The notes beneath the pieces are model-generated. The model searched no databases. It was not told where the DNA came from and saw only the letters and a list, made by a program, of their open reading frames with translations. A stretch of 64,000 nt of DNA from a bacterium. Lineage in GTDB: Bacteria; Krumholzibacteriota; Krumholzibacteriia; JACNKJ01. Below are positions 28,013 through 47,673 of the stretch, piece after piece. Position 1 is the first letter of the stretch. Every line of letters begins with the position of its first letter. The stretch spans positions 435,340 through 499,339 of the forward strand of contig JAAEPZ010000538.1 in NCBI GenBank assembly GCA_024231955.1, written 5' to 3'. Made by a program: the position numbers and the translations under genes.

Positions 28013-28036
28013 ATTGTGGCATCCGAATACCACAAT
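28013..28036. promoter_or_regulatory. 24-bp palindrome ATTGTGG-N10-CCACAAT in the AT-rich hcp promoter region; candidate operator
   Basis: Perfect 7-bp inverted repeat centred ~65 bp upstream of the hcp start, inside the most AT-rich stretch of the window (28000-28140). Confidence 0.3.
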
Positions 28037-28390: not shown

Positions 28391-28552
28391 ATTACTCTGC
28401 CGGTGAGAAATCATCTTTCCCGACGGCGCAGAGGGGACATTCAAAGTCGTCCGGGAGATCTTCGAAGGCTGTTCCCGGTGCGATCCCCTGCTCAGGCGCG
28501 CCGATCTCCGGATCGTAAACCCAGTCGCAAACGTCGCAAATGTATTTCTTCA
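28391..28552 (-). CDS. Rubredoxin (53 aa); not in the ORF track
   Basis: Reverse translation gives [53 protein letters not shown], with the two CxxC knuckles and WVYDP/GxxF motifs of rubredoxin. Confidence 0.85.
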
Positions 28553-28596
28553 TAATGACTCTCTTTCGAACAGATTGATAGTTGCGTCGGATCTCG

Positions 28597-29094
28597 TTAC
28601 CGCTTCACCGTGTCGGCCAGACTGGCCAGATAGCGTACATGGCTCATCTCCTCGGCAATAATCTCCTTAACATGCTCCCGTCCTTGACCCTCGGGTACTA
28701 TCTCCAGCAACGCCTGGTAGAAAATCACGGAATCCTTCTCCCGTTCGATCGCCGCGTGGATGATCTCTGCGGCATCCTCAACCATTACCGAGAAGTCCTC
28801 CGCCACCTCATCGATCTTGAAGATCTTGCCGTCGGCAATTGCCTGCAAATAGAGTGCGGCCTCTCCGTTGGGGTCGAATTGGGTCCCCTCCGCCAGTGCG
28901 CCGGTCAGGCTCTCCTTCAGATTCGTGAAGTGGTTGATATGACTGATCTCCCAATCCGCGAGTTGGAAAAAGAGCTTCTTTGCTTCCTGGTCATGAACGG
29001 TGTCCGCGGCTTTCAGATAGAAAGCCCGTGCGTTCTCTTCAAGTCGAACAGCGATTTGCAGTACTTCCTGTGCGTTAAACATTGTCATCTCCAA
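28597..29094 (-). CDS. Ferritin-like diiron protein of the rubrerythrin family (no rubredoxin domain)
   Basis: Four-helix-bundle-type ExxH motifs (EISH, EEMSH) and E-rich helices. Overlaps the 3' end of fprA by 20 nt. Confidence 0.6.
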
Positions 29095-30319
29095 CCTGGT
29101 TCGTGGACTCCGTTGCTGAATATCCCTTGCTCATAAGTGTGGCTCTGCGCGCCAGATCCATTCCGGCCAGTCGGCACCGCTCCAGGATCTCCGGAGTGGG
29201 GCGGAACTGAGCCTTGACGGGCTCATGTGTTATCTCCCAACGCATCTGCTCCAGCACATCGTTGATGGCCTCCGGTCCGCCTCGACTCCAACCGTAGGAC
29301 CCGAACGAGAAACCAGCCTTGTTGGACGGACGCAAGCCCTTCAGATAGGTCAGTGCGGCGGCGGCCATGGGCATCATCCCCGTGTTCAGGGTCGGGGAGC
29401 CGAAGGCGATTGCCGCGGCATCGAGCACCTCGGTCACCAGCCTGGTCAAGCTGGTGTGGCGGATGTGGAGCAGGTGCGTCTCGACCCCGGGTTGAGTCGC
29501 ACCCTCCAGGATCGCCTTGGCCATCTCCCCGGTACTGTTCCACATCGTGTCGTAGATGATCAGCACCTTGGGTTTCGGCTTGTAGGATGCCCAGTCGTGA
29601 TAGGCGGCGATGATCTTATCGATATGGCTGCGCCAGATGATGCCGTGACTGGGTGCGATCATCTCGATATCCAACCCTGCCGCCGCGGTCAGGACCTTCT
29701 TGACCCGCTGCCCGTAGGGCATGACGATGTTCGCGTAGTAGGCACGGGCCTCCTCCATTACCGTGGGCAGATCGACCTCATCGTCGAAACGTTGGGAGGA
29801 GGCGTAGTGCTGCCCGAAGGCATCCATTGAGAAAAGGATCTTCTCCTCGGGAACATAGGTGAACATGGATTCCGGCCAGTGCACCATCGGCGTGTTGATG
29901 AATTGAAGAGAGCGTTTGCCCAGAGGGAGGCGATCCCCGGTTGTCACCTCGTGAAACCGCCAGTCGCTCGTATCGAAATGTCTCCCGAGCGCCAGGCGAC
30001 ATTTGCTGTTGCAGACAACGGTGGCGTTGGGGAGAGCGGCCATGATCACGGGCATCGCGCTGGCGTGATCCGGCTCGGCGTGATTGCAGATGACATAGTC
30101 TATTTTGTCCGGGGTGGTCAGTGCGGCTATGTGCGCCAGCAGATCTTCGGCAAAGGGTGCCTTGACCGTGTCTATCAGGGCGACCTTTTCATCCCGTATC
30201 AGATAGGCATTGTAGGTGGCCCCCAGCTCGGTGTCGTAACCGTGAAAATCACGGACGATCCAGTCGACATGGCCTACCCAGTCAATTCCGTCACATAGCG
30301 TTGCTTTCATCGGCTCCAA
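29075..30319 (-). CDS. Flavodiiron protein (FprA / rubredoxin:oxygen oxidoreductase-like; metallo-beta-lactamase plus flavodoxin domains)
   Basis: Diiron site HAEPDH (HxExDH) in an MBL fold. C-terminal flavodoxin-like domain (KVLIIYDTMWNSTGEMAKAI...). Length 414 aa. Confidence 0.85.
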   Translation of the reverse strand: MEPMKATLCDGIDWVGHVDWIVRDFHGYDTELGATYNAYLIRDEKVALIDTVKAPFAEDLLAHIAALTTPDKIDYVICNHAEPDHASAMPVIMAALPNATVVCNSKCRLALGRHFDTSDWRFHEVTTGDRLPLGKRSLQFINTPMVHWPESMFTYVPEEKILFSMDAFGQHYASSQRFDDEVDLPTVMEEARAYYANIVMPYGQRVKKVLTAAAGLDIEMIAPSHGIIWRSHIDKIIAAYHDWASYKPKPKVLIIYDTMWNSTGEMAKAILEGATQPGVETHLLHIRHTSLTRLVTEVLDAAAIAFGSPTLNTGMMPMAAAALTYLKGLRPSNKAGFSFGSYGWSRGGPEAINDVLEQMRWEITHEPVKAQFRPTPEILERCRLAGMDLARRATLMSKGYSATESTNQVGDDNV

Positions 30320-30343
30320 CTCCTTGACCGTTGCCGTGGTTCA

Positions 30344-30799
30344 TCAATTTTCAGAGAGGATGTAGTCGTCGTATTCGATCTCGAAGCGCAGCTTATGCTT
30401 GGCCTCCTCCTGGGCAAGGGCCTGCAGCAGTTTCCTGAGTTTGGGATCATCGGCTTTGCCGGCCAGCCTGGTATAGAGGGCGAAAGCCGCCTTCTCCCGC
30501 TTCATGGCCAGGATCAGCACCTTCCTGTAGTTAAGGTCCTCCGTCGGGTCAACCTCGACCAGATAGTCGACAATTTTCAGGTCGACTATCTCCTCATCGG
30601 AGGGAACCGCCATGTTCGATTCCCTGATGCTCTCCAGAATCGCTTTGTGCCCATCCTCCTCGACCGCAAACTCCTCCAGAGCCGCTGCCATGTCCGCGTT
30701 GTCCGATTTTGCGGCCAGATCGCGGTAAAACGCGGCCGCATTCTCTTCACTGTTGATGGCAAAGGTGAGGATATCTTCGAATGAGTTCCACTGTTTCAT
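30344..30799 (-). CDS. Ferritin-like diiron domain protein (rubrerythrin-like)
   Basis: ExxH motifs EEDGHKAI and QEEAKHKL. Length 151 aa. Confidence 0.55.
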   Translation of the reverse strand: MKQWNSFEDILTFAINSEENAAAFYRDLAAKSDNADMAAALEEFAVEEDGHKAILESIRESNMAVPSDEEIVDLKIVDYLVEVDPTEDLNYRKVLILAMKREKAAFALYTRLAGKADDPKLRKLLQALAQEEAKHKLRFEIEYDDYILSEN

Positions 30800-30851
30800 G
30801 GAGGTCCTTTCCTGCGCCGGGCGCCAGGCGCCCGGCGGTCAAAAATAGTAT

Positions 30852-31427
30852 CTACCAGTTTTCCGCAAGTAATTCGAAGTGGGCTCGAGCATGCGCGCAA
30901 GCCGGGCAGACAGCAGGGGCTTCAGACCCGTCGTGAACATAACCGCAGTTGCGGCAGATCCAACGGCCGCCGTCGTCACTGCTGAACACCTTGTCGGCGC
31001 GGACATTGGTCAACAGCGCCTTGAAGCGCTTCTCATGCTGTTTCTCGGCAACGGCAATCGCTCTGAAGACATCGGCGATGGCTCCGTAGCCCTCCTCATC
31101 GGCGACCTGGGCGAACTCGGGGTACATGCTTTCCCACTCATGCAGTTCACCGGCGGCCGAGGCCTCCAGATTCTCGGCGGTATCGCCGATAGTACCGGCC
31201 GGGAATGATGCGGTTATCGCCAGTTCGCCCCCCTCCAGGAACTTGAACAACCGCTTGGCGTGTTCCCGCTCCTGGTTCGCCGTCTCCTCGAAAATCGCCG
31301 CGATCTGAATGAAACCCTCTTTACGCGCCTTGCCGGCAAAGTAGGTGTAGCGATTCCGCGCCTGGGATTCACCCGCAAAGGCTGTCAGCAGGTTGGATTC
31401 GGTACGACTGCCTTTGATACTTTTCAT
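30852..31427 (-). CDS. rbr: Rubrerythrin (diiron ferritin-like domain plus C-terminal rubredoxin-like domain)
   Basis: ESQARNRYTYFA...EREHAKRLF...EGYGAIADVFRAIAVAEKQHEKRF. C-terminal CRNCGYVHDG...CPACAHA. Confidence 0.9.
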   Translation of the reverse strand: MKSIKGSRTESNLLTAFAGESQARNRYTYFAGKARKEGFIQIAAIFEETANQEREHAKRLFKFLEGGELAITASFPAGTIGDTAENLEASAAGELHEWESMYPEFAQVADEEGYGAIADVFRAIAVAEKQHEKRFKALLTNVRADKVFSSDDGGRWICRNCGYVHDGSEAPAVCPACAHARAHFELLAENW

Positions 31428-31445
31428 GGTTGCCCTCCGAACGGT

Positions 31446-31829
31446 TTACATCTCGGCTTGCCACAGACCGTGCAGGTTGCAGTAGGCCAGAACAGTTATC
31501 TTGTCGCCATCGATTGCGAAGAATGCTTCGGGCGTGCCGGTAGGCTTGAGGAACTCCCGGTAGGCCTTCCCGTCCACGATGACCTCAATCCACTCGATGA
31601 AGTGATCGAATCCCATGGGGTGCACAACCGAACCGACGGTGACCTTGACGCCCCCTTCGACCTTTTCGATTACCGGGATATGCTTTTCGGTGGCGGCCTC
31701 GGTGACATTGCCCTCAACGTGCGTCATCGGTTTGCCGCAGCATATCAGAGCTCCGTTGCCCTCCCGAACGACCTCCGTCATCATACCGCAAATCTCGCAA
31801 CGGTAAACCTGTAATTTCTCGACAGCCAT
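31446..31829 (-). CDS. dfx: Desulfoferrodoxin (2Fe superoxide reductase: desulforedoxin plus neelaredoxin domains)
   Basis: Start reassigned to ATG 31827-31829 (GGAGGT 8 nt upstream), giving MAVEKLQVYRCEICGMMTEVVREGNGALICCGKPM...KHIPVIEKVEGGVKVTVGSVVHPM...HFIEWIEV...AYCNLHGLWQ. Confidence 0.85.
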   Translation of the reverse strand: MAVEKLQVYRCEICGMMTEVVREGNGALICCGKPMTHVEGNVTEAATEKHIPVIEKVEGGVKVTVGSVVHPMGFDHFIEWIEVIVDGKAYREFLKPTGTPEAFFAIDGDKITVLAYCNLHGLWQAEM

Positions 31830-31903
31830 CTTAATTACCTCCATTACTTGCTGGGTTTGATTCCATGCGGCCCCCGCCTGGATGACGGGGGCCGGCAACT
31901 GGT

Positions 31904-32497
31904 TTACTCTTTGTGCGTGGCCAGGTATTCGGCGACACCCTCGGCGGTCGGCTTCATGGCATCATCACCTTCACGCCAGTTGGCGGGGCAGACTTCGCCG
32001 TGCTTTTCGGTGAACTGCAGGGCGTCAAGCATGCGCAGGGCTTCGTCCACGTTCCGGCCCAGAGGCAGATCATTGATTACCGCGTGACGCACGACCCCCT
32101 CTTTGTCGATCAGGAACAGTCCGCGCAGGGCCACGGAGTCGCCGAAGAGTACGCCGTAATCGCGCGAGATCTGCTTGGACAGATCGGCGACCAGAGGGAA
32201 GCGGATTTGTCCGATGCCCCCCTCTTCGACGGGTGTGTTCTTCCAGGCGTAGTGGGAGAACTGGGAGTCGACGGATACGCCCACCAGTTCGCAATTCTTG
32301 CCCTGGAACTTCTCGTATGCTCGATCAAAGGCGATTATCTCACTGGGGCAGACGAAGGTGAAATCCAGTGGGTAGAAGAACAGAACAGTGTACTTGCCGC
32401 GCAGGTCGCTCAGCTTGTACTCCTCATTGAAACTGTTATCGCCCATGACGGTCACGGCCGTGAAATCGGGTGCTTCCTTCGTAACGAGAGTGCTCAT
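31904..32497 (-). CDS. Typical 2-Cys peroxiredoxin (AhpC/Prx1 family)
   Basis: Start ATG 32495-32497 (AGGAG 6 nt upstream), giving [12 protein letters not shown]. Peroxidatic FTFVCPSEI and resolving EVCPANW motifs. Confidence 0.85.
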
Positions 32498-32537
32498 TTT
32501 CAACTCCTTTGGGGCCAGTGGCCCTGATTGTTATTTA

Positions 32538-33059
32538 CTACTGATTATCCGCAATGTTGGCGATACTGACAGTCTGGCGTTCCCCCAGCTCCTTGTCCAG
32601 CATGTAGAGAAAGCCGGGGTGCTCCTGTCCCAGTTCGAACTTGTCCACGATCTCCTTGAATGTGGACTCCTCCTCGACCTGCTCATTGATGAACCACTGT
32701 AGGAAGGTCGAGGCTGCGTGGTCACGCTCTTCGAGAGCGATATCGACCAGATCGTTGATCATGGACGTGACCTTGTACTCGTGCTCAAGTGCATCCTTGA
32801 AAACGTTTATCGGGGAATCCCAATCGGTGGGTGGCGCGTCGATGGTGTCGAGCAGAACGCGGCCGCCCCGTTCGTTCAGGTAGTTGACGAAACGGATGGC
32901 GTGTCCGGCCTCCTCCTCGTAGTGAGCAAGTAACCAGCGGGCCATGCCGGAGAGCCCTTTGGACTCCATCCAGGCGGACATCGACAGATACAGGTAGTTG
33001 GAGTAGAACTCCGCGTTGATCTGGCGATTGATCGCTTCCTGAATCCTCGGCTTAATCAT
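32538..33059 (-). CDS. Non-heme ferritin (Ftn)
   Basis: Start at second ATG (AGGGAG 6 nt upstream): MIKPRIQEAINRQINAEFYSNYLYLSMSAW...EEAGHAIRF...LEHEYKVT.. (ferroxidase-centre residues). Confidence 0.8.
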   Translation of the reverse strand: MIKPRIQEAINRQINAEFYSNYLYLSMSAWMESKGLSGMARWLLAHYEEEAGHAIRFVNYLNERGGRVLLDTIDAPPTDWDSPINVFKDALEHEYKVTSMINDLVDIALEERDHAASTFLQWFINEQVEEESTFKEIVDKFELGQEHPGFLYMLDKELGERQTVSIANIADNQ

Positions 33060-33107
33060 CATTGACTCCCTTTCATCGAGTTTGGTTTGTCTGATGTGAT
33101 TCACTAA

Positions 33108-33506
33108 CTAGTGCTTCCGTAAGCAGTTGTGGCAGGTGCCCGTGTATTCCAGCCGCCATGAGTCGATTTCAAATCCGTCCAGCTCCTCAACATGACGGTC
33201 GAGCAACTCCTGCGCGGGAGCTGGAGCGTCGTAGACACTGCCGCATTTGGTGCACTCAAGGTGGCAGTGAGGGACAGTGTTACCGTCGAAACGGCTCTGG
33301 CCCGAGTTGCTGTCCAGCTTAAGAATCAGCCCCTGCCGCGCCATGACCTCCAGGTTGCGATACACCGTGCTCAGGCTGATTTTTGGCATCTCGGACCGAA
33401 CCATATCCAGGAGCTCTTGAGCGGTGGGGTGTGTAGTCACGCTACACAACTCCTTTAGAATCAGTGATCTCTGCTTGGTGTTTCTCTGGAAAGTATCATT
33501 ACTCAT
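33108..33506 (-). CDS. perR: Fur family regulator, PerR-like
   Basis: QRSLILKEL...HPTAQEL (DNA-binding), HCHLEC, TGTCHNC (structural Zn Cys4). The PerR assignment rests on its position heading a peroxide-stress gene run. Confidence 0.65.
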   Translation of the reverse strand: MSNDTFQRNTKQRSLILKELCSVTTHPTAQELLDMVRSEMPKISLSTVYRNLEVMARQGLILKLDSNSGQSRFDGNTVPHCHLECTKCGSVYDAPAPAQELLDRHVEELDGFEIDSWRLEYTGTCHNCLRKH

Positions 33507-33514
33507 GTTATCCC

Positions 33515-33545
33515 CTTATCGCTAATGAATATTATTAGCAATAAG
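33515..33545. promoter_or_regulatory. Fur/PerR-box-like inverted repeat in the divergent perR / hao promoter region
   Basis: CTTATCGCTAAT-gaatatt-ATTAGCAATAAG (11 of 12 arm matches), AT-rich, 9 bp upstream of the perR start codon. Confidence 0.4.
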
Positions 33546-33725
33546 GATCAGTTTGTCAACCATGTTTTTGGGATTATCTCCATTTTGAGACCCCGTATTA
33601 CGAAACCGGGAGATAATAGTGGTAATGTGGTACGGAAAAGGCTAAGGTCGATTCTGGCCAAGATCTCTCTCTTATATTCAACAGGCGTAGTCCTGATCAA
33701 TTATGCTCAGAAAAGGAGTCCTTCC

Positions 33726-35057
33726 ATGCGTAGAGCCTTAGTTGTCATGGTTCTGTTCATGTTTGTGTTGCCCGTCATAGCAATGGCGGCGACGGATGAG
33801 TCTGCCGTCGCCGGGGAATGTATGACCTGCCATAAAGAGAAAACACCCGGTTTGTACAAGCAGTGGTTCCAGTCGAATCATGCGCAGAACAACGTCTCTT
33901 GCCTGGATTGCCACGAGGCGAAACGTAATGAAAGTGATGCCTTCGAACATGAAGGTGCCTGGATCGCTACTTTGGTGACCCCAAAGGACTGCGGCTCCTG
34001 TCATGAAAAAGAGGCTGATCAGGTCGGCAACTCCTATCACGCCCATGCAGGTGAGATCCTGGAGTCGAAGGACGCTTACCTGGCCCACGCTGCCGGCGGT
34101 GATCCCGCTGCAATTGCCGGGTGTGCCAGCTGTCACGGCGCCAAGGTTGAGATTGATGAGAACTCACCCAACAAGCTGAGCCTGAAATCGTGGCCCAACT
34201 CGGGTATCGGACGGATCAATCCCGATGGCAGCAAGGGCTCCTGCACCGCGTGCCATACCCGCCATGCTTTCAGCAAAGCGCAGGCTCGTAAGCCCGAATC
34301 CTGCAGCAAGTGTCACCTCGGTCCCGATCATCCGCAAAAGGAGATCTACGAGGAGTCCAAGCACGGCAACGCTTACTACACGCATCTTGATGAAATGAAC
34401 ATCGATGCCGACCGCTGGGTTGTCGGACAGGACTACTGGGAGGCGCCCACCTGCGCCACCTGCCATATGTCCGCCACCATGAAGCAGGAGCTGACTCACG
34501 ATGTCGGCGAGCGGATCAGTTGGACACTTCGTCCTCCGGTATCGAAGATGAAGGACAACTGGGAGCAGAAGCGGGAGAATCTCAAGGATGTCTGTCACGC
34601 CTGCCATACGGTCTACTTTGTCGATGGCCATTACGCCCAGTTCGACGGTCTGGTGAACCTGTATAATGAAAAATTCGCCAAACCCGCCGGTGCGATCATC
34701 GCCAAGATCAAGGAGAAGAAGCTGCTGGAGAACCAAGCGGCCTTCAGTAATGAGATCGAGTGGGAGTACTGGGAGCTGTGGCACCATGAAGGTCGCAGGG
34801 CCCGTCACGGCGCAGCCATGATGGCCCCGGACTACACCTGGTGGCATGGCATCTACGATGTCGCTCACACCTTCTACTTCAAGTTCATACCGTCCGCGCT
34901 CGAGCTGGATGATCCGGAGGTCAATGCGATGATCGAGGAGATCATGCAGAGCCCGATGCACAATTGGGCGAAGAGGCCGACGGGTGAAATCAAGGCCGAT
35001 ATCAAATCGGGCAAGATGCAGAAGATGTATGAGGACTTCTACGGCGTGCATAAGTAG
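33726..35057 (+). CDS. HAO-family (hydroxylamine oxidoreductase-like) octaheme cytochrome c
   Basis: ATG 33726 with AAAGGAG RBS; signal peptide. Eight CXXCH: CMTCH, CLDCH, CGSCH, CASCH, CTACH, CSKCH, CATCH, CHACH. The size and spacing are typical of the HAO/epsilon-Hao family. Confidence 0.75.
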   Translation: MRRALVVMVLFMFVLPVIAMAATDESAVAGECMTCHKEKTPGLYKQWFQSNHAQNNVSCLDCHEAKRNESDAFEHEGAWIATLVTPKDCGSCHEKEADQVGNSYHAHAGEILESKDAYLAHAAGGDPAAIAGCASCHGAKVEIDENSPNKLSLKSWPNSGIGRINPDGSKGSCTACHTRHAFSKAQARKPESCSKCHLGPDHPQKEIYEESKHGNAYYTHLDEMNIDADRWVVGQDYWEAPTCATCHMSATMKQELTHDVGERISWTLRPPVSKMKDNWEQKRENLKDVCHACHTVYFVDGHYAQFDGLVNLYNEKFAKPAGAIIAKIKEKKLLENQAAFSNEIEWEYWELWHHEGRRARHGAAMMAPDYTWWHGIYDVAHTFYFKFIPSALELDDPEVNAMIEEIMQSPMHNWAKRPTGEIKADIKSGKMQKMYEDFYGVHK

Positions 35058-35068
35058 GGGGCGCGGAC

Positions 35069-36532
35069 ATGACGCGTTTCTACAACTTCTTGCGCGGTGT
35101 AATGGTGAACGGATTGGGCAGGACGGGGGTGCGGCTGTGCACCTCCGTCATCGCCCTGTATCTGATTTTTGAATTTACCCGCCTCACGGGCATCCTGGTT
35201 CACGCCGGTGTTGAGATGCTCACCTTCATGCTGTTGATTCCGCTCTTCCTGCTGGGAATTCTGCTGATCATCCTCGGCTGGCTGCGCTACGTCAAGAGGT
35301 CGGACAAAAGCAGTGAGGTGCTTCTGCGCGGGCGCTTCGGCGCTGATGCCCTGAAGTCGGGATTGACCGGCAGTGCGGTCTCCCTGGGCTTCCTGGGTGT
35401 GGTCGTCATCGGTCTGCTCTTCCTCGGGACGAGCACCGGCAGCATGCTGCACTTCATGGAGTCGCCCCGCTTCTGCGGCACCGCCTGTCACAGCACGATG
35501 CACCCGGAGTGGGCAGCCTACCAGAATTCACCCCACGCACACGTCGATTGCGTCGAGTGCCACGTGGGCGAGGGTGTGGGCAACCTGGTGCAATCGAAGC
35601 TGGATGGCCTGCGGCAGATGGTTGCGCTGGCGACCAGGAGCTACGAGAAGCCGATTCCGACGCCGATCCACAATCTGCGTCCGGCGCGGGAAACCTGCGA
35701 GGAGTGCCACTGGCCGGACAAGTTCTACGCCACCCGCCTCAAGGTCATCCCGCACTTCGGCATGGATGAGGCTTCAACGCCGACCTACAATGCGCTCAGT
35801 ATCAAGATAGGCTCCGGTCTCGATGACGAGGGGGCGATCCACTGGCATGTGGGTGAGGAGAATGAGGTGCGTTACGCCTCGGAGGGCAACGCCAGGGAGA
35901 AGATGTTGTGGGTGGAGTGGCGTCAACCGGATGGGAGCTTCAAGCGCTTCAATCGCATGACTCCGCCGATCGGTGAGCTCGAGCACACGGAGATCCGCAC
36001 CATGGATTGTGTGGATTGCCACAACCGGGCGACCCATATCTACCAGGAGCCGGAGCAGGTCGTTGACCGGCTGCTGGCTTCCGGCGATCTGGACATCGAG
36101 TTGCCGTTCATCAAACAGCATGCCTATGGCGCGCTGATCGACAACTACAAATCCAGCGAGGCGGCGAACGTCGGCATCGAACGGCGGCTGCTGAATTACT
36201 ATTCGCGCAACTACCCCACGATTTTCACCGCCAAACAGGTCGAACTCGATCGCGCAGTCGATCTGCTGCAGGAGGCGTGGGCCAGGAATGTCCATCTCGG
36301 TATGGAGGTCACCTGGGGCACATATCCCGACTTCGCGAACCACCATGGTGATGGCGGTTGTTTCCGTTGCCACAACGAAAACTTTGTGGATGACCAGGGT
36401 GAAACCATCTCTTATCAATGCTCGCTGTGCCACGATCTGTTGACCCAGGACAGCCCCGAACCCTTCAGTTTCAAGGCCACACCTGACGCCGAAGCCGAAG
36501 GCGAGGAGGTCGATGAGGTGGCGGAGGGCTAG
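35069..36532 (+). CDS. Membrane-anchored multiheme cytochrome c (six CXXCH; NapC/NrfH-like quinol-interacting partner)
   Basis: Two or three N-terminal TM helices, then CGTACH, CVECH, CEECH, CVDCH, CFRCH, CSLCH. Starts 12 nt after hao. Confidence 0.7.
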   Translation: MTRFYNFLRGVMVNGLGRTGVRLCTSVIALYLIFEFTRLTGILVHAGVEMLTFMLLIPLFLLGILLIILGWLRYVKRSDKSSEVLLRGRFGADALKSGLTGSAVSLGFLGVVVIGLLFLGTSTGSMLHFMESPRFCGTACHSTMHPEWAAYQNSPHAHVDCVECHVGEGVGNLVQSKLDGLRQMVALATRSYEKPIPTPIHNLRPARETCEECHWPDKFYATRLKVIPHFGMDEASTPTYNALSIKIGSGLDDEGAIHWHVGEENEVRYASEGNAREKMLWVEWRQPDGSFKRFNRMTPPIGELEHTEIRTMDCVDCHNRATHIYQEPEQVVDRLLASGDLDIELPFIKQHAYGALIDNYKSSEAANVGIERRLLNYYSRNYPTIFTAKQVELDRAVDLLQEAWARNVHLGMEVTWGTYPDFANHHGDGGCFRCHNENFVDDQGETISYQCSLCHDLLTQDSPEPFSFKATPDAEAEGEEVDEVAEG

Positions 36533-36567
36533 CCGACAAGTATCTGAATTGGTCTGCAATCGTTTCG

Positions 36568-36598
36568 GGGCTCGGTTATAACCGGGCCCTTGTTGTTT
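36568..36598 (+). terminator. Rho-independent terminator after the cytochrome pair
   Basis: GGGCTCGG-ttataa-CCGGGCCC followed by TTGTTGTTT. Confidence 0.5.
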
Positions 36599-36705
36599 AC
36601 AGCTATTGGCGATTGGCCCATATTCAAACCCCACAGGAGGTGACTGCGATTCTGTCCAACGGTGATGATATCCGTCTCCCCTTTCTGGGGGCGTTCGGCC
36701 GCCGC

Positions 36706-38457
36706 ATGTTTCTGTCGCTGGCCCTGGTCAGTCTGCTGCTCGTGGCCGCAGTCGGCGGCATGGGTTATCGGCAAACGCGCCAGGCTTTGATGAAGGAGGC
36801 GCGTGAGCATCTGGGTGAGGTGGCGCGTGCCCGTCGAGTCCGGCTGGAGATCTGGTTTGATGAACGACGAGAGGACATGGTTCTGCTCTCGGCGCACATA
36901 GACAAGACCCTGAGCGATGATCTGGAGACTGCCGCCGTGATCGAGGAGTTGCTGGACATGCAACTGGAGGCGCAGCCGGCCTATCGTCATTTCGCCGTAT
37001 TCGATACTGAGGGTTCGCTGATTGCGTCCGCCGGAGAACCTGTGCACGAAGAGTGCATGAACTCGGAATGCCCCGAGGTCAGAAACGCCATGACGTCCGG
37101 GGAGATCGTACTGGGGCGTTTCATCCTGGACGCCGATGACGAACCCACCATGCGGCTCAGCGCCCCCCTCAGCCTGGGTGACGAATTCACCGGAGCTCTG
37201 CTCGCCGTATTGCGCCCGGCCGCATCTATCAATCCCATACTTGCCGATACATCAGGTCTGGGACGCAGTGGCGAGACCTACCTCGTGGGTGCCGACATGA
37301 CCATGTTGACCCCGTCCCGCCATATGAATCACCCGCCTGCCCTGACCCACAAGATGCCGACGCCCGGCGTATTGGCCTGCCTCGAAAGCGGCAGCGGCAT
37401 CAGTCTGTATACGAGTTACATGGGTGAGGAGGTTCTGGGCGCCTACGAATGGCTGCCTGCGCAGCGTTGGGCGTTGATCGCCGAGATCCGGACCGCCGAA
37501 GCGTTCGCGCCGCTGCGGGGAATCGCACACAACACGGTACTGATCGCCTGCGTGGCTCTGCTCCTGGCGCTGCTGATCAGCATCACGTTGTCGCGGCGTC
37601 TATCCAGTCCGATCGGTCGTTTGGCGGTGGCCAGTGATCGTGTGGCTGCCGGTGACTGGTCCCCGCTCCCCGTCATCAGGGGGCCGGGCGAGATAGGCAT
37701 CCTGGCGCGCCATTTCGCAATCATGGTGGCATCGCTCTCCCGCTCGCGAACGGAACTTGAGCAATCGAGCCGGCAATTGGCCCAGGCCGAAAAGCTGGCG
37801 GAGATAGGCCGCCTGGCCGCGGGTCTGGTGCATGAGATGCGCAATCCCCTGGCCGCGATCAAGATGAATCTGAGTAACCTCACCCGCAGCCGCTCCCTGA
37901 CCGCCATCGAGGAGGAGCAGCTGCAGATCGCCTGCGAGGAGGGGGAGCGTCTCGAGCTGATGCTGGCCGAATTCCTCGCCTTCAGCCGCCCTGTCGAATT
38001 GAAGCGGGCACTGGTGAGCCTGGAATATCTGCTCGGTAAAGTCGAGCAGTTGACCGAGGCGGAGCGGGCTCCCCGCGGCATCCTCCTGAAGTTTGAGCGC
38101 CAGACGACGGATCGTGAGATCCTGGTCGATTCCGAGATGCTGCTCAGGGCGATCATCAACCTGGTGTACAATGCCGCCCAGGCGTTGCCGGAGAACGGGA
38201 TCGTCCGTCTGGTTGCGGGTGAGGATGAGGGCGCCCTGGTTATCGACATTGAGGATGAGGGGCGCGGCATGCCGCAGCCGGAACTCGACAGGATCTTTGA
38301 TCCTTTCTTCACGACGCGTGAGGGGGGAGTCGGTCTGGGAATCTGCAACGCGCGCAAGTATGTCGAACTGCATGAGGGGCGGCTGACGATCGCCAGCCGC
38401 GAGGGCGAGGGGACGCGAGCTCGCATCACACTGCCTGCGGGGGAGAGCAATGCTTGA
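36706..38457 (+). CDS. Sensor histidine kinase (periplasmic Cache-like sensor, HAMP, HisKA, HATPase_c)
   Basis: Two TM helices flank a ~280-aa periplasmic domain. H-box LVHEMRNPLAAI. N/G boxes LVYNAAQAL, DEGRGMP, GVGLGICNARKYVELHEG. Start is uncertain: ATG 36706 or TTG 36613. Confidence 0.8.
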   Translation: MFLSLALVSLLLVAAVGGMGYRQTRQALMKEAREHLGEVARARRVRLEIWFDERREDMVLLSAHIDKTLSDDLETAAVIEELLDMQLEAQPAYRHFAVFDTEGSLIASAGEPVHEECMNSECPEVRNAMTSGEIVLGRFILDADDEPTMRLSAPLSLGDEFTGALLAVLRPAASINPILADTSGLGRSGETYLVGADMTMLTPSRHMNHPPALTHKMPTPGVLACLESGSGISLYTSYMGEEVLGAYEWLPAQRWALIAEIRTAEAFAPLRGIAHNTVLIACVALLLALLISITLSRRLSSPIGRLAVASDRVAAGDWSPLPVIRGPGEIGILARHFAIMVASLSRSRTELEQSSRQLAQAEKLAEIGRLAAGLVHEMRNPLAAIKMNLSNLTRSRSLTAIEEEQLQIACEEGERLELMLAEFLAFSRPVELKRALVSLEYLLGKVEQLTEAERAPRGILLKFERQTTDREILVDSEMLLRAIINLVYNAAQALPENGIVRLVAGEDEGALVIDIEDEGRGMPQPELDRIFDPFFTTREGGVGLGICNARKYVELHEGRLTIASREGEGTRARITLPAGESNA

Positions 38458-39793
38458 ACTTCTGATTATCGACGATGATCGCGCCTTTCGACGCAGCCTA
38501 GAACTGCACATGCAGGGTCGCGGATTTTCGGTGCGTTGCGCATCCAATCTCGCCGAGGGCGAGTCCGCCTGGCGAGAGAAGTTGCCGAATCTGGTATTCC
38601 TGGATCTGATGCTGCCCGACGGCGAGGGGACCTGGTTGCTGGAGCGGATGACCGAGGAGGGACTCGGCACCAAGGTGATCATCATCACCGGGCATCACGA
38701 GATGGAACGTGCGGTAACGGGTATGCGCGCCGGCGCCTTCGATTTCGTGCACAAGCCGCTATCCGCCGACGAACTCGACAAGGTGGTCGACCAGGCGATC
38801 GGGCAGTTGCAGGTCGAGGAGAGTATGGGGCTGGAGGCCGGCAGCGCGGCCGAGCTCTCGCCGATGGGCTCCATCATCGGTCGCAGCAGGTCCATTCTCG
38901 CGTTGCATAAAACCATTGGTCTCGCCAGTCGTGGCCGGGCCAATGTTCTCATCCTGGGGGAATCCGGCACGGGCAAGGAGCTGGTGGCCAGAGCCATTCA
39001 CCGACTGGTTACGCCGCGTGAACCTTTCCTGGCCGTCAACTGCAGCGCCTTGGTGCCGTCGCTTCTGGAGAGCGAGCTGTTTGGTCACGAGCGGGGTGCA
39101 TTCACCGGGGCGGCGCAGCAGCGGCGGGGGCGCATGGAGCTGGTCGGCGAGGGTGTTCTGTTTCTCGATGAGATCGGCGACCTGCCGCTCGATCTCCAGG
39201 CCAAACTTCTGCGGGTCATCCAGGAGCGGGAGTTCGAGCGGGTAGGCGGGACTCAATCGCTGCCGTTCAAGGCGATGCTGATCTCCGCCACACACAGGGA
39301 TCTGTCGGCCATGGTGGCAGCGGGCGATTTTCGCGAGGATCTCTTCTACCGCCTCAAGGTTGTGGAGATCGAGGTCGAACCGCTGCGGGATCGCGTCGAG
39401 GATATCCCTCTACTCGTCGAGCATTTCCTCACATTGTATAACGGCGAGTTCCACCGCAATGTCACCCGCGTGCCGCAACAGGTGCTGGCCGATCTGCAGG
39501 CGTACCACTGGCCCGGCAATGTGCGGGAGCTGGAGAACAGGATCCAGGCCGGCATCATGGCCAGTCCAGGGGATGTGCTGACCGTGGAGATCCCCAGTAC
39601 CGTTACCGCGACCGGGGATGGCGGCAGTTGGCGCCGCCCGCTGCGCGATGTCGAGTGCGCGCATATCGCCCGGGTTCTCGAGCACTGCAACTGGGTGCAG
39701 GGTGAAGCGTGCAGTATCCTGGGTGTCAGTCGACCTACTCTGCGCAAGAAGATTCAGGACTTTGGACTCAAGCGGCCGGGTAAGGAATCGTAG
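38450..39793 (+). CDS. Sigma-54-dependent response regulator (NtrC family: REC, AAA+ sigma54-interaction, Fis-type HTH)
   Basis: REC LIIDDD...DLMLPDG. Walker A GESGTGKELVARAIH. GAFTGA motif (HERGAFTGAAQ). ELENRIQ. C-terminal HTH. Confidence 0.85.
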   Translation: MLELLIIDDDRAFRRSLELHMQGRGFSVRCASNLAEGESAWREKLPNLVFLDLMLPDGEGTWLLERMTEEGLGTKVIIITGHHEMERAVTGMRAGAFDFVHKPLSADELDKVVDQAIGQLQVEESMGLEAGSAAELSPMGSIIGRSRSILALHKTIGLASRGRANVLILGESGTGKELVARAIHRLVTPREPFLAVNCSALVPSLLESELFGHERGAFTGAAQQRRGRMELVGEGVLFLDEIGDLPLDLQAKLLRVIQEREFERVGGTQSLPFKAMLISATHRDLSAMVAAGDFREDLFYRLKVVEIEVEPLRDRVEDIPLLVEHFLTLYNGEFHRNVTRVPQQVLADLQAYHWPGNVRELENRIQAGIMASPGDVLTVEIPSTVTATGDGGSWRRPLRDVECAHIARVLEHCNWVQGEACSILGVSRPTLRKKIQDFGLKRPGKES

Positions 39794-40038
39794 CGGGATC
39801 CTTTCGGCGATTTGACCCTGTTCAGTTATCTCCACACCTGGTTATCGAAACGCCCCCCCTCTGCCGGGGGAGCGTCGCCCGGTGATGCCCATTCCTCACT
39901 ATTTACATCGGATGCCAACCTGAAAGCCCTTTTCAACCATTGAAAGGAGCTTTCCCGTATTCGTGGGTAAGGCTGAAAGTGGTAGTCGCTAACCGCTTGT
40001 TATTACATGCATTACGGGCTTGGCTCTGCGCGAGGTCA

Positions 40039-40053
40039 TGGCACGGCTGTTGC
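40039..40053 (+). promoter_or_regulatory. Sigma-54 (-24/-12) promoter: TGGCAC-ggctg-TTGC
   Basis: Perfect match to TGGCAC-N5-TTGC, ~80 nt upstream of the efflux-operon lipoprotein gene and directly downstream of the NtrC-family regulator. Confidence 0.6.
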
Positions 40054-40131
40054 GCTGAAGGGGTCAGCCCGGAGATCATGTCGGACGGAAAATCAAAAGG
40101 GATCCCCGGATAACCCGAGAATACCAAGAGG

Positions 40132-40680
40132 TTGATCATGATGAAAATCACCCGCAATTTGATCCTGTTGATTCTGGTGGCAGGCGTAAGCGCACTCCTC
40201 GCAGGCTGTGGCGACGCAAATGGTGAGGATAGTGTTTCGGCTATGGCGACCGCCGCCGATGTCTCCTGCTCCACGGTTGCCCCGGCCTGCGCCGGAGGCA
40301 CGAGCTGCAGCGAAGATGCGGACATCGCCGACGTCTCCTGCTCGGCAGGTGAGTCGATCAGCAGTGGCGGTTCATCATGTTGCCCAAGTAAGGGTGGCAT
40401 GAGCGCCAAAATCACGGAGTCCGCGACCATGGGTAAGGTCTACACCAGTGAGAAACTGTACACCTGCCCCGGACACCCCGCCCTTGTCGACACCGATCCC
40501 GATGACAAGTGCCCGCTGCACAAAGCTCCCCTGCGCGAGATGACGGCTGCCGATGTCACGGAGCTGCGCAGCGAGGAGTTGCTCGGCTGCACGATGTGTC
40601 CCGTCGTCAAACCGGCGACGGCCGAGAAACCGGATTGCATTCTCTGCGGCATGAAGCTGATCGAAATCAAAAAGGGGTAG
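40132..40680 (+). CDS. Cys-rich putative heavy-metal-binding lipoprotein (YHCP/CPxHP-type metal-binding motifs)
   Basis: Lipobox LLAGC. 17 Cys. YTCPGHPALV...DKCPLH and GCTMCPVV...CILCGM resemble the metal-binding domain found at the N-termini of CusB-like adaptors. Confidence 0.55.
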   Translation: MIMMKITRNLILLILVAGVSALLAGCGDANGEDSVSAMATAADVSCSTVAPACAGGTSCSEDADIADVSCSAGESISSGGSSCCPSKGGMSAKITESATMGKVYTSEKLYTCPGHPALVDTDPDDKCPLHKAPLREMTAADVTELRSEELLGCTMCPVVKPATAEKPDCILCGMKLIEIKKG

Positions 40681-40686
40681 GACGCA

Positions 40687-42072
40687 ATGAGGTCCAGCAT
40701 CAACGGTCACTCACCGGACGGAATCTCGGGGTCGGCAAATCCGGGGAGGTATCTCCTCGGATTTCGCCCCCTGGTTCTGGTCGCCCTGTTTCTCGGTCTG
40801 TGTTCGCCGCCGGCATTCGCCGATCCCGATGCCCGAGCGATAGGCGGTCAACAGACATCGACCTCACTGTCCCCCTTGGCAGCGATCGCCGACTACCAGG
40901 CTTTCGCGCTGGCCAACAACCCCGGGCTCCTGTCCGCCGGAGAATCCTGGCACGCTGCGCGGAGCGGAGCGGACCATGCGGGCGCCTGGCCCGATCCGAA
41001 ACTGAGTTTCGGCTATCTGGCCGAGGGGGTAGAGACGAGAGTCGGTGCCCAGCGCTGGAAAGTGGGTGTGAATCAGAGCATCCCCTGGTTCGGCAAGCGG
41101 GCTCTGAAAAGGGGCATGGCGGAGGCGCAGGCGACGGCACGTGAGCATCTATGGGGGCAGAAGAGAAGGCAATTGAGCTTTGATGTCTACAGGGCCTGCG
41201 TGGAATATGCCTATCTCGGCGAGGCTATCGCCAGCAAGAGGCGCGGCCTCGAACTGCTGACCTCACTTGAGGAGGTGGCGGTTATCCGCTATCGCAACGG
41301 CGGCTTGTCCTGGACAAACATGCTCCGATTGCTGAATCGGAAAGCGTTGCTCGGCGAGGATGTCAACCGCCTGACTGATCGACGGCATGCGCAGGTGCTC
41401 GTCATCAACTCCCTGCTGGGGCGTGATCTCTCCGCAGCGATAAGCACACCCTTGACGATTCCCGATGCTGATCCGTCATTCAGGATTGCGACCCACGCCG
41501 ATCTTCTCGCCGACAATCCCACCATGCGCGCCCAGGCGGCGCGGGTCGACGGTGGGCGTCGCGGCGTCGCGCTTGCCCGGAAACGGGCGCGTCCCGATCT
41601 CAATCTCGGTGTCGAGTATATAGCCACCGATGAAGCCTCCATGCCCGGCGTCGTGGACTCCGGCAAGGATCCGATCATCTTCAAGTTGGGGATCAGCGTG
41701 CCTCTTTGGCGCGGGAGCTACTCGGCCGCGGAGCAGGAGGCCGCCGCCCGGCTGCGGTCGATCGAGGCCGCCGGGCTGGACCTGACCAACCGGCTGCTGT
41801 CACGTCTGGACAGGGTGATCCTGGAGCGCAGGGAGGCCGCCAGACGGGTGAAGCTGTACGAGGTCGAATTGATCCCCCGTACCCACGAAGCGTTGGTCGC
41901 GCTTGCAGCCGACTTCCGCACCGGCGGCGCTGACTTCAGCGAACTGCTCCAGACAGAGGAATACCTGCTCGAATTCCAGTTGAAAGAACTCCGTGCCCGG
42001 GCCGATCTGGCCCTGGGGCGGGCGGAGATCGAACTACTTGTCGGCTCCCGACGAGGGGGGGATCAGCAATGA
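40687..42072 (+). CDS. TolC-family outer membrane efflux protein (CusC/CzcC-like)
   Basis: Signal peptide; two-repeat OEP architecture; length 461 aa; contiguous with the adaptor and RND genes. Confidence 0.75.
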   Translation: MRSSINGHSPDGISGSANPGRYLLGFRPLVLVALFLGLCSPPAFADPDARAIGGQQTSTSLSPLAAIADYQAFALANNPGLLSAGESWHAARSGADHAGAWPDPKLSFGYLAEGVETRVGAQRWKVGVNQSIPWFGKRALKRGMAEAQATAREHLWGQKRRQLSFDVYRACVEYAYLGEAIASKRRGLELLTSLEEVAVIRYRNGGLSWTNMLRLLNRKALLGEDVNRLTDRRHAQVLVINSLLGRDLSAAISTPLTIPDADPSFRIATHADLLADNPTMRAQAARVDGGRRGVALARKRARPDLNLGVEYIATDEASMPGVVDSGKDPIIFKLGISVPLWRGSYSAAEQEAAARLRSIEAAGLDLTNRLLSRLDRVILERREAARRVKLYEVELIPRTHEALVALAADFRTGGADFSELLQTEEYLLEFQLKELRARADLALGRAEIELLVGSRRGGDQQ

Positions 42073-43899
42073 CCGAATCCAGACGTCCCCGATTTTTCCA
42101 TTCCCGCAACCAGGCCATAGCGACCCTCCTGATTCTGGTTGCGGTCTTCGTGCTTGGTTTTCTGACTCGCGGAGGCGGAGCGGGTGGAGACCGGCAACAG
42201 GCAGCGGCGATCGCCTCCGAGTGGACCTGCTCCATGCACCCGCAGGTGCGGCAACCGGAATTCGGTCTGTGCCCGCTCTGCGCCATGGATCTGATCCCCG
42301 TGGGTGAGGATACTGGCGGCGATCTGGGGCGCAGGGAGCTGCGACTGTCGGCGCATGCCCGTAAACTGGCTTCTCTGGAGACGGCGCTGGTCGAGCGGCG
42401 GCATGTCGATGTGGAGTTGCGGTTGCCCGGTACGGTGGAATTCGACGAGACGCACGTGAAGCGGATCACCGCCTGGGTCGCCGGCCGCCTGGAGGAGGTG
42501 CATGTGAACTCCACCTACGAAACGGTCGCTGCGGGGCAGGCGCTGGTGGATGTCTACAGTCCCGGTTTGATCGCCGCCCAGGAGGAGTTGCTGCAGGCGC
42601 TCCGTGCCGTGGAGCGGACCGGTGGGCAAGGCGCTTCGGTTCTGGCGCAGCGCACGTTGGCCGCCACGCGGGAGAAACTGTCGCTGCTGGGTTTGACCTC
42701 CGAACAGATCCTGACGCTGGAGCGGACACGGACGACGAACGATCGGGTCAGTATCCCGGCGCCGCTGGGTGGGGTAGTTCTGGAGATGAACGCGATCGAG
42801 GGGCGCTTTGTAGATCGGGGTACGCCGCTCTACACCATTGCCGACCTGTCGCAGGTCTGGGTGCAGTTGGCTGCATACGAATCGGACCTGAGCCTGATCG
42901 CTACGGGGCAGACGGTCACTTTCGAGTCCCGCGCCTGGCCCGGGGAGATCTTCGCCGGGCAGGTGGACTTCATCGATCCGGTGCTTGATGAACAGACGCG
43001 GACGACCCGATTGCGGGTTGTGGCGGACAACAGCGACGGGCGTCTGAAACCGGGGATGTTCGTGCACGCCACGTTGCTCGCCGGTGTCGATCCCACGGAT
43101 TCCGACGACGAGCCGCCGCTGGTGATTCCGGCTTCGGCACCGCTGATCACGGGGCGACGGGCCGTGGTCTACGTGGCGCATCCACGGGAGGAGGGGCGTT
43201 ACGAGGGGCGAGAGGTTGTGCTTGGAGCCCGGCGGGGCGACTTCTATGAAGTACAATCCGGGCTGTTTGCCGACGAACGGGTCGTGACCCGGGGCAACTT
43301 CAAACTCGACAGCGCCCTGCAGATTCTGGCCAGGCCGAGCATGATGAATCCCCCTGCGGTTCAGGATGCCGCAAGGGTCGAACTGATTGCGCTGGCGCAA
43401 AGCGGCGTCCGCCTGCCGATCAGTGACCCGTCCCTGGCCGAACTTGAAAATATCTATGTCGCCTATTTCGCGCTGCAGTTCGCCCTGAGTCATGATGACT
43501 ATCCCGGCGCGCTGTCCGCCGGTTCGCAGCTCAAGGCTGCCCTCTCGCTGGTTGATCCGCAACGGTTCGTCGTCGAGTCCAAGCCGGTCTGGCAACTCGT
43601 GCATCGGACACTTGTCGGGGAGACCGGGATGCTGGCCGACAGCGGAGACATGGCGACCGCCCGCGCCGGATTCGAGATGATCTCCTTTGCCGTCACCGCA
43701 CTTGCACGCAGTTTCGGCCGCCAGGCGGATCGACCTCTGCTCACCTACTTCTGCCCAATGGCCTTCGATTACGAGGGGGCATCCTGGTTGCAGGAAAAAG
43801 AGGGGACGGAGAATCCCTACTACGGTTCGCAGATGTTCAAGTGCGGTTCGCAGCTGGAGACGCTGAGTACGCCGGAGAGCAAAGCCGGAGGCGAGGATC

Positions 43900-43907: not shown

Positions 43908-47673
<3,766 letters not shown>

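Follow-up and report, generated by a model that had tools for sequence, protein, structure and literature searches.

The 64,000-nucleotide stretch of bacterial DNA analyzed here (positions 435,340 to 499,339 of contig JAAEPZ010000538.1, assembly GCA_024231955.1, phylum Krumholzibacteriota), hereafter the window, carries two adjacent genes for multiheme c-type cytochromes. One encodes a predicted octaheme protein from the family of hydroxylamine oxidoreductases (HAO) and the other, which starts 11 nucleotides after the octaheme stop codon, a predicted inner-membrane hexaheme protein resembling ImcH. Found again in many other bacteria across phyla, the pair probably encodes a quinol-linked reductase. 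A preliminary description of the locus, made from the nucleotide sequence without database searches, had suggested a function in nitrite, hydroxylamine or nitric oxide (NO) detoxification together with sigma-54-dependent control; our results support the functional guess, and the regulatory part should be dropped. All coordinates are positions in the window.

33726..35057, plus strand: HAO-family octaheme cytochrome c (443 amino acids), assigned by PF13447, heme motifs and a Sec signal peptide
35069..36532, plus strand: putative ImcH-family inner-membrane hexaheme cytochrome (487 amino acids), assigned by transmembrane helices, motifs, spacing and residue pattern

The octaheme cytochrome

The open reading frame (ORF) of the octaheme protein, listed with a start at 33525, ends with the stop codon at 35057; the ATG at 33726 is the credible start, with aaaaggag in front of it and, behind it, a predicted Sec signal peptide (approximately residues 1–22, MRRALVVMVLFMFVLPVIAMA, with A as the next residue). 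CXXCH occurs eight times in the protein, from CMTCH at residue 32 through the motifs at 59, 89, 133, 173, 193 and 243 to CHACH at residue 290. It matches PF13447 with 96.2 bits, against a curated cut-off of 21.9, and its best NCBIfam match is the hydrazine dehydrogenase (HAO-family) model. Among solved structures the top relative is IhOCC from Ignicoccus hospitalis (4qo5; E-value 5e-44, and 2e-57 in the profile search), with further matches in the Protein Data Bank (PDB) to Nitrosomonas HAO (4fas, 1fgj), HAO-like proteins of Kuenenia and hydrazine dehydrogenase; the Nitrosomonas and Kuenenia HAOs match with E-values of 1e-16 to 1e-25. The eight motifs align with hemes 1–8 of Nitrosomonas europaea HAO (NeHAO; hhalign probability 99.8), and the segment CHLGPDH aligns with CHSGVDH, the site of the Asp-His pair that follows heme 6 of Nitrosomonas HAO. 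All eight motifs and the corresponding Asp201-His202 are invariant across 14 homologs, and by homology heme 4 (C133) would be the catalytic heme. On these grounds the protein is assigned to the HAO family, in agreement with the preliminary description. The alternative named there, membership in the MccA or Otr families, was rejected, given that profile searches returned no match to TIGR04315 or to MccA.

Close homologs number in the thousands at 67–75% identity; those listed all carry PF13447 and go by the names "hydroxylamine dehydrogenase" or "multiheme c-type cytochrome", their hosts being Krumholzibacteria, Zixibacteria, Ignavibacteria, Myxococcota and others. An identical database sequence is GY835_14745, from a metagenome-assembled genome (MAG); a separate exact-sequence look-up of the protein in the window returned no record. 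A homotrimeric state and a C-terminal trio of long helices mark the family. AlphaFold2, run with 14-sequence alignments, predicted long helices at residues 296–330, 343–365 and 368–393 (pLDDT 72–95) within an overall poor model (pLDDT 53), and a Foldseek comparison of this low-confidence model with the PDB gave Kustc0458 as the sole match, at a TM-score of 0.26; residues were mapped instead from sequence and profile alignments.

The feature that separates the oxidative from the reductive members of the family is the tyrosine that forms a cross-link to the catalytic heme 4 of an adjacent subunit, Tyr467 of mature NeHAO or Tyr491 in the precursor numbering used here. HAO-family enzymes that lack this residue work as reductases (PMC8042395). 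The canonical HAOs needed for the comparison were retrieved with an approximate N. europaea HAO query, which was validated by its match to the N. eutropha cluster (95% identity) and also brought up hundreds of HAOs from ammonia-oxidizing bacteria (AOB) and comammox organisms, and the alignments were built from the retrieved database sequences. In the column occupied by Tyr491 in 10 canonical HAOs, the octaheme family has an invariant tryptophan, Trp372, so that GGW-T-Y491-T-E-G of the HAOs stands over P-D-Y370-T-W372-W-H-G. This column comes out the same by three methods: hhalign (probability 99.8), MAFFT L-INS-i and the merging of profiles with MAFFT. Two residues before the cross-linking tyrosine, the HAOs have a W/Y that aligns with the invariant Tyr370 and is Y in comammox HAOs as well, and Arg269 aligns with Tyr358 of NeHAO (precursor numbering). 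Identity to oxidative HAO is 27%, calculated over the aligned core only. A profile search of 1.84 billion representative sequences yielded 2,124 relatives, and the best 150 of the 2,124 included no canonical HAO. Because the cross-linking tyrosine is replaced by an invariant tryptophan, the octaheme protein is classified, following the practice of the field (PMC8042395, PMC8940962), as a reductive rather than an oxidative HAO-family enzyme. The protein thus shares with the HAO and hydrazine dehydrogenase of ammonia oxidizers and anammox bacteria the Pfam family, the heme order and the Asp-His pair after heme 6, but differs from them in having Trp in place of the cross-linking Tyr and in the absence of a haoB/cycA/cycB context in the window.

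The closest structural relative, IhOCC, has the same eight-heme order and also lacks the cross-linking tyrosine, with DWTTF at the corresponding position. An insert of approximately 30 residues between hemes 4 and 5 is common to the octaheme family and IhOCC, reading WPNSGIGRxNPDGS in the latter against YPNHGVGRVNPDGS in the protein of the window. IhOCC differs in being archaeal and in having Thr where the octaheme family has Trp372; the two proteins do not align in the heme 7–8 region, and no ImcH-type partner of IhOCC is known.

The membrane-anchored partner

The second gene encodes a protein for which AlphaFold places three transmembrane helices at approximately residues 15–40, 46–78 and 103–131 (pLDDT 70–86; 58 for the whole model), in line with hydropathy windows at 26–77 (two helices) and 97–129. 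The loop at residues 72–100 is rich in Lys and Arg, consistent with a periplasmic location of the heme domain. The first heme motif is of the CX3CH type (CGTACH, C136-GTA-C140-H141) and is invariant in 14 homologs; five CXXCH motifs follow, at C161, C210, C314, C431 and C451. PF03264 (NapC/NirT) matches residues 108–192 with 33 bits (cut-off 24), whereas the NrfH equivalog model TIGR03153 reaches only 51.5 bits over residues 110–214, well below its cut-off of 134.2, and the sole PDB match is NrfH with an E-value of 0.009. The similarity to NapC/NirT-type proteins is limited to the third transmembrane helix and hemes 1–3. A plain NrfH, NapC or CymA tetraheme cytochrome is ruled out by the three transmembrane helices, the six hemes and the sub-threshold NrfH score.

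The architecture is that of ImcH, which has three N-terminal transmembrane helices, a CX3CH motif at the membrane domain and five to nine CXXCH motifs after it (PMC4251993, PMC6295460), and in which the similarity to NapC/NirT likewise covers only the third of the transmembrane helices plus hemes 1–3 (PMC6295460). The heme motifs of Geobacter ImcH (GSU3259) start at residues 132, 156, 205, 311, 428, 448 and 486 (PMC6295460, Table S3), and those of the partner at 136, 161, 210, 314, 431 and 451, which gives spacings of 24/49/106/117/20 and 25/49/104/117/20, respectively. The seventh, C-terminal heme of GSU3259 has no counterpart in the partner; six-motif ImcH homologs are listed in the same table for Anaeromyxobacter, Gemmatimonas and Zixibacteria RBG-1 (PMC6295460). 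A 2023 preprint describes E127, H137, K173, Q179 and Y188 of ImcH as conserved quinol-site residues and Q179 as the distal ligand of heme 1. With a constant offset of +4, their counterparts in the partner are E/D131, H141, K177, Q183 and Y192, of which K177, Q183 and H141 are invariant in the 14 homologs, so that both the quinol-site residues and the His/Gln ligation of heme 1 appear to recur. E131, K177, Q183 and Y192 are accordingly candidate quinol-site residues, and six more invariant histidines (156, 258, 260, 323, 409 and 425) can supply distal ligands to the hemes. Although an NCBIfam search of the partner returned no match to an ImcH model, five independent features fit, and the protein matches the ImcH family by architecture, GSU3259 being compared through its published numbers only. 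The preliminary description of a membrane-anchored, quinol-linked hexaheme partner thus holds for the six motifs, the three transmembrane helices and the PF03264 match; it is refined in that the first motif is CX3CH and the type is that of ImcH rather than of NrfH.

The arrangement resembles that of NrfH and NrfA, in which the gene for a NapC/NirT-family quinol dehydrogenase also stands beside that for a periplasmic multiheme nitrite reductase; in NrfH, too, a conserved Lys is close to heme 1, which sits at the surface of the membrane. However, NrfH has one transmembrane helix and four hemes, and NrfA is a pentaheme protein with a CXXCK motif; neither fits the pair described here, in which, unlike NrfH–NrfA, the gene for the enzyme comes first and that for the anchor second.

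Conservation of the gene pair

Relatives of the octaheme protein were recovered from at least 569 genomes in a scan that covered one genome per species. Of 35 loci fetched at 61% identity or higher (loci are designated L001, L004 and so forth), 30 include enough downstream sequence to show whether the partner is present, and 26 of the 30 have an ImcH-like gene directly downstream on the same strand. The hosts include Zixibacteria, Marinisomatota, Fibrobacterota, Ignavibacteria/Bacteroidota, Acidobacteriota, Calditrichota, GN15, Delongbacteria and proteobacterial MAGs, at least nine phyla in all. Conversely, a look-up that started from homologs of the partner (45–47% identity) found a PF13447 gene immediately upstream in three of three cases. 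The closest relative (75% identity) has the pair by itself among unrelated genes, with neither PerR nor a two-component system nearby. The octaheme and ImcH-like genes are thus a conserved two-gene module. A search of the literature available to us found no paper linking ImcH with HAO, and the hard-wiring of an ImcH-family protein to an HAO-like enzyme across many phyla is a new point. The fixed operon gives both families a concrete partner; Levar et al. had posed the question of which proteins interact with ImcH.

A gene for an outer-membrane β-barrel of the Alginate_exp family (PF13372) adjoins the pair in about nine genomes (L004, L010, L015, L016, L019, L024, L078, L089 at 2173–3441 and L091 at 6559–7785), with no such gene in the window. 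The barrel may act as an anion porin that admits the substrate.

Electron donors, neighbors and the probable substrate

Relatives of the octaheme protein at approximately 50% identity have no ImcH-like gene next to them and carry other quinol-dehydrogenase modules in its place: in Gammaproteobacteria a canonical NapC/NirT tetraheme cytochrome (PF03264, 172 bits), and in Deltaproteobacteria a small tetraheme cytochrome together with an NrfC-like ferredoxin and an NrfD-like membrane protein. This exchange of donor modules parallels the use of NrfH or NrfBCD by NrfA and argues, by analogy, that the octaheme protein would be a terminal reductase of the periplasm, with the quinol pool as its source of electrons.

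The gene neighborhoods of the wider family point to nitrogen oxides. Directly downstream of the HAO gene, L036 and L059 encode a NapA that scores above the NCBI equivalog cut-off; the same cluster is found in six loci. The hcp gene is found next to the HAO gene or the pair in two Zixibacteria loci, L001 and L033, the first of which repeats the set seen in the window (perR, an iron-sulfur protein, hcp, HAO, partner, ahpC, dfx, ferritin and rubrerythrin), and genes for a Crp/Fnr regulator and hcp-type iron-sulfur proteins lie upstream in several further loci. The sequence TTGAC-N4-GTCAA is the predicted box of HcpR, a regulator of the nitrosative stress response, in Geobacter, Desulfuromonas and cyanobacteria (PMC1274295). 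With at most one mismatch allowed, such a box precedes 14 of 68 HAO genes (21%), compared with 24 of the 737 remaining genes of these loci (odds ratio 7.7, Fisher p = 5e-7); the loci are L011, L013, L014, L018, L022, L041, L042, L045, L046, L049, L052, L056, L061 and L077. This enrichment places many HAO-family genes in a nitrosative-stress regulon. There was no clear enrichment upstream of HAO genes of either the FNR box, TTGAT-N4-ATCAA (4 against 1.2 expected), or the CRP box (2 against 0.9). The combination of a hao gene without the cross-linking Tyr and hcp has been proposed to constitute a nitrite-ammonification route, the hydroxylamine:ubiquinone reductase module run in reverse (reverse-HURM) (PMC8940962, PMC6896113, PMC5317091). 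Together, the associations with NapA, hcp and the HcpR box and the quinol-dehydrogenase neighbors support quinol-driven reduction of nitrogen oxides, and the link to nitrogen oxides and nitrosative stress that had been drawn from the window recurs in other genomes.

We consider it probable, then, that the pair is a self-contained, co-transcribed respiratory or detoxifying module in which an ImcH-type menaquinol oxidase serves a reductive HAO-type reductase of nitrite, NO or hydroxylamine. Menaquinol would be oxidized at heme 1 of the anchor (the CX3CH heme just outside the third transmembrane helix), in a step expected to be electroneutral by analogy with ImcH and NrfH; electrons would pass through the six hemes of the anchor to a surface heme of the octaheme protein and on to the five-coordinate heme 4, where nitrite and/or NO and hydroxylamine could be reduced to ammonium or partly to NO. 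Such a module would work like NrfH–NrfA, or like epsilon-Hao with its NrfH-type donor, but with an ImcH-type anchor; the substrate, the direction of electron flow and the contact between the two proteins are the parts that we infer. Since the pair lies beside a PerR oxidative-stress operon and a cluster of hcp, flavodiiron protein and Rrf2 genes, its role in this bacterium is probably protection from nitrosative stress or the use of nitrite as an electron sink, not ammonia oxidation.

A functional parallel is epsilon-Hao of Campylobacterota, together with the reverse-HURM of Nautilia profundicola; epsilon-Hao is also a periplasmic HAO-family octaheme protein without the cross-linking Tyr, which reduces nitrite and hydroxylamine (PMC8042395, PMC8940962, PMC5317091). 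A quinol dehydrogenase of the NapC/NrfH family is thought to be its donor, and it has genomic links to hcp and nap. Compared by description only, the two differ in the donor, a tetraheme protein with one transmembrane helix for epsilon-Hao and a six-heme, three-helix ImcH-type protein here.

Several points weigh against a nitrogen-oxide reductase with an ImcH-type anchor. No HcpR box was found in the window, which is also devoid of nap, nar and nrf genes, and within the ImcH-partnered clade only a minority of loci have nitrogen-related neighbors. Every assayed HAO-family enzyme lies outside this clade; beyond epsilon-Hao of Campylobacterota and the enzymes of anammox bacteria and AOB, the HAO clades have no assigned function, and a sulfur acceptor has been proposed for some of them (PMC9213671). 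The invariant Tyr370 is two residues away from Trp372, so that a shifted cross-link is formally possible as far as the sequence goes. Finally, the homology to ImcH was derived from published coordinates and residue numbers rather than from an alignment with GSU3259, and the AlphaFold models, with pLDDT values of 53 for the octaheme protein and 58 for the partner, lend no structural support to a complex.

The question of the acceptor deserves separate consideration, because the enzyme might reduce a sulfur compound (sulfite, tetrathionate or polysulfide) rather than a nitrogen oxide. A sulfur acceptor has been proposed for HAO-family proteins of some Desulfobacterota and argued for HAO clade I proteins in nitrate-poor vent sediments (PMC9213671), the octaheme family is commonest in sulfur-cycling lineages, and two related octaheme proteins, MccA and Otr, have sulfur compounds as substrates (PMC9250108). 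Furthermore, in L038 (9724–12513) and L044 (9374–12082), from MAGs of Nitrospirota and Dissulfurispiraceae, the HAO gene is followed by a gene for a type-II molybdoenzyme of the dimethyl sulfoxide (DMSO) reductase family (TIGR03479, below cut-off), which has NrfC-like and NrfD-like subunits and no clear assignment to nitrate. However, the protein of the window matches neither MccA nor Otr, and the associations with NapA, hcp and the HcpR box favor nitrogen oxides. Moreover, all assayed HAO-family enzymes without the cross-linking Tyr reduce nitrite or hydroxylamine (PMC8042395), and IhOCC has been termed a nitrite reductase (PMC9250108). We therefore regard a sulfur substrate as unlikely.

Upstream region and regulation

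The preliminary description had pointed to a sigma-54-like element upstream of the pair and raised the possibility that the regulator of the NtrC family encoded downstream drives the operon. The features that bear on this proposal are as follows.

33108-33506, minus strand: gene of the Fur/PerR family (perR), divergent from hao
33514..33546: AT-rich palindrome resembling a Fur/PerR box, with 13-nucleotide arms (CCTTATCGCTAAT-gaatatt-ATTAGCAATAAGG), from a palindrome scan
33531..33559, minus strand: sigma-70-type promoter TTGACA-17-AATAAT (11 of 12 matches) for the perR-ferritin-ahpC-dfx-rubrerythrin operon
33628..33643, plus strand: sigma-54-like element TGGTACGGAAAAGGCT, three mismatches to TGGCAC-N5-TTGCW
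36567..36590, plus strand: hairpin resembling an intrinsic terminator, with a 10-bp GC-rich stem and U-rich tail (UUGUUGUUU; -20.2 kcal/mol, z = -3.5)
36596-36624, plus strand: sigma-70-like element before the kinase gene
36613-38457, plus strand: dCache-HAMP histidine kinase (context, outside the module)
38450-39793, plus strand: NtrC-family sigma-54 activator, GAFTGA present (context, outside the module)
40039..40054, plus strand: near-consensus sigma-54 promoter TGGCACGGCTGTTGCG, the only one-mismatch site in the 64-kb window
40138-47673: operon with genes for lipoprotein, outer-membrane factor, CusB/CzcB-like adaptor and CusA/CzcA pump (TIGR00914 above cut-off)

The perR–hao intergenic region spans 219 bp with a GC content of 41%, compared with 60% for the window. 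The quoted element is indeed present at 33628–33643, with the GG and GC dinucleotides at the correct spacing, approximately 83 nucleotides upstream of the ATG, and by a score weighted for GG and GC it ranks 28th of 127,968 positions, which corresponds to an approximately 5% chance of one such site per 219-nucleotide intergenic strand. However, its -12 box reads AGGC instead of TTGC and so lacks both T's, and sites of such quality, with three mismatches, are no commoner in the window (186) than in shuffled sequences (242 ± 17). The element is a weak sigma-54 candidate and probably a chance match.

Control of the pair by the two-component system through this element is not without other arguments: the activator has the GAFTGA motif, the gene order HAO, kinase, NtrC is identical in L067, and two relatives with 52% identity combine an adjacent NtrC-type regulator with a good site in front of the HAO gene. 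In L079 the regulator and kinase are divergent and a one-mismatch site (7914–7929) lies 66 nucleotides upstream of the start of the HAO ORF, and in L040 an adjacent NtrC-type regulator accompanies a site at 2511–2526, the mismatches in the two sites numbering one or two. Most of the evidence runs the other way. A terminator and a separate promoter-like element precede the kinase gene, and the hairpin at 36567–36590 is predicted to end the two-gene unit ahead of the kinase and regulator genes. The enhancer-like inverted repeats expected 80–150 bp upstream of the element were absent, the Fur-type palindrome of the perR promoter being the only repeat found there. Motifs common to the hao upstream region and either the hcp upstream region or the probable target region of the regulator were limited to 10–14-mers at chance level, one of which is the perR -35 hexamer on the other strand. 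None of the other 26 loci with the pair has the two-component system, and across 69 loci sigma-54 sites upstream of HAO genes show no enrichment (7 loci against 6 expected). The only near-perfect site, TGGCACGGCTGTTGCG, lies just downstream of the regulator gene, between it and the CusA/CzcA operon and 84 nucleotides upstream of the latter. We thus consider it quite unlikely that the pair is a sigma-54 operon activated by the neighboring regulator, and that proposal has to be abandoned, reasonable in kind as it was in view of L079 and L040; some lineages may control HAO-like genes through sigma-54. The metal-efflux operon, and not the cytochromes, is the most likely target of the two-component system, and the promoter, regulator and efflux genes look like a metal-efflux system under sigma-54 and two-component control, which corrects the regulatory map of the window. 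A small palindrome, CTTTTCAAccaTTGAAAGG (39929–39947), lies approximately 100 bp upstream of the TGGCACGGCTGTTGCG site.

Relation to ImcH and extracellular electron transfer

In Geobacter sulfurreducens, ImcH is needed for high-potential extracellular acceptors (PMC4251993), and the resemblance of the partner to this family suggests another reading, in which the pair would belong to a chain for extracellular or metal electron transfer and the octaheme protein would be a periplasmic carrier, not an enzyme. The Alginate_exp outer-membrane barrel that adjoins the pair in about nine loci could be taken in its favor. But the catalytic Asp-His pair and all enzyme features of heme 4 are invariant, the loci examined have no genes for outer-membrane or extracellular cytochromes beside the pair, and the relatives of the octaheme protein use donors of the NrfH and NrfCD types, typical of periplasmic reductases. 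Geobacter ImcH itself, for all its likeness to the partner in the three N-terminal transmembrane helices, the CX3CH motif after the third and the nearly identical heme spacing, has a seventh heme motif that is missing here, and its gene is monocistronic and feeds PpcA and extracellular electron transfer, whereas the partner gene stands in an operon with an enzyme. A carrier function in extracellular electron transfer is, in our view, very unlikely.

A broader proposition can be made tentatively, at somewhat less than even confidence: the six-heme branch of ImcH could act as a menaquinol dehydrogenase dedicated to a widespread reductive HAO-like clade, not as a component of extracellular electron transfer. 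Alongside NrfHA/NrfABCD and epsilon-Hao/NrfH, the pair would then make up a third type of quinol:nitrite/NO/hydroxylamine reductase module, with a distribution over at least nine phyla of mostly uncultured anaerobes. Homologs of ImcH have been taken as indicators of metal respiration (PMC4251993, PMC6295460). (FeGenie, which we had considered as a further case of ImcH serving as an iron marker, was dropped, the term being absent from the FeGenie paper.) If the proposition is true, an "ImcH homolog" would be unsafe as a marker of metal reduction, and Geobacter ImcH would have descended from an enzyme anchor as a derived, free-standing protein. Genes for HAO without the cross-linking Tyr are among the most abundant "nitrogen-cycle" genes of anoxic mats and sediments (PMC8940962, PMC9213671), and the module could explain nitrite ammonification, or the detoxification of NO and hydroxylamine, in genomes that lack nrfA.

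Surrounding genes

The genes around the pair (hcp, Rrf2, the divergent Fur/PerR gene, the kinase and the NtrC-family regulator) lie where the preliminary description had placed them.

25057-25533: Rrf2 regulator
26311-27960, minus strand: hcp

The minus-strand oxidative-stress operon (28392–33506), headed by perR, continues with genes for ferritin, peroxiredoxin, desulfoferrodoxin, rubrerythrin, two rubrerythrin-like proteins, a flavodiiron protein (29075–30319) and a rubredoxin, the last of which starts at 28553, ends at approximately 28392 and had been overlooked under a 60-amino-acid ORF cut-off. The Fur-type palindrome overlaps the -10 of the perR promoter and is predicted to be the site of PerR autoregulation of this perR-ftn-ahpC-dfx-rbr-FDP-rubredoxin operon. 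That the module is instead part of a PerR regulon directed against stress from peroxide or oxygen, perhaps with a role as quinol peroxidase, is highly improbable: although perR and the pair share the 219-bp intergenic region with its palindrome and the same set of reactive-oxygen genes flanks the pair in Zixibacteria L001, the palindrome sits on the perR -10, approximately 180 nucleotides from the hao start, the adjacency to perR and reactive-oxygen genes is seen in only two of about 30 loci, the flanking island also holds the NO-related genes hcp, flavodiiron protein and Rrf2, and we know of no peroxidase in the HAO family.

A perfect palindrome, ATTGTGG-N10-CCACAAT (28013–28036), the only one of its kind in the window, lies approximately 55 bp upstream of the hcp start at 27960 and is a candidate operator for the Rrf2 regulator or another NO sensor. 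A metagenome scan with the histidine kinase of the window recovered relatives of the kinase core only, at 27–33% identity. Just beyond the Rrf2/hcp cluster, two kinases are encoded on the minus strand at 20200–24816: a Ser/Thr protein kinase of 946 residues that carries a long TPR array, and a histidine kinase of 548 residues that carries an FHA domain.

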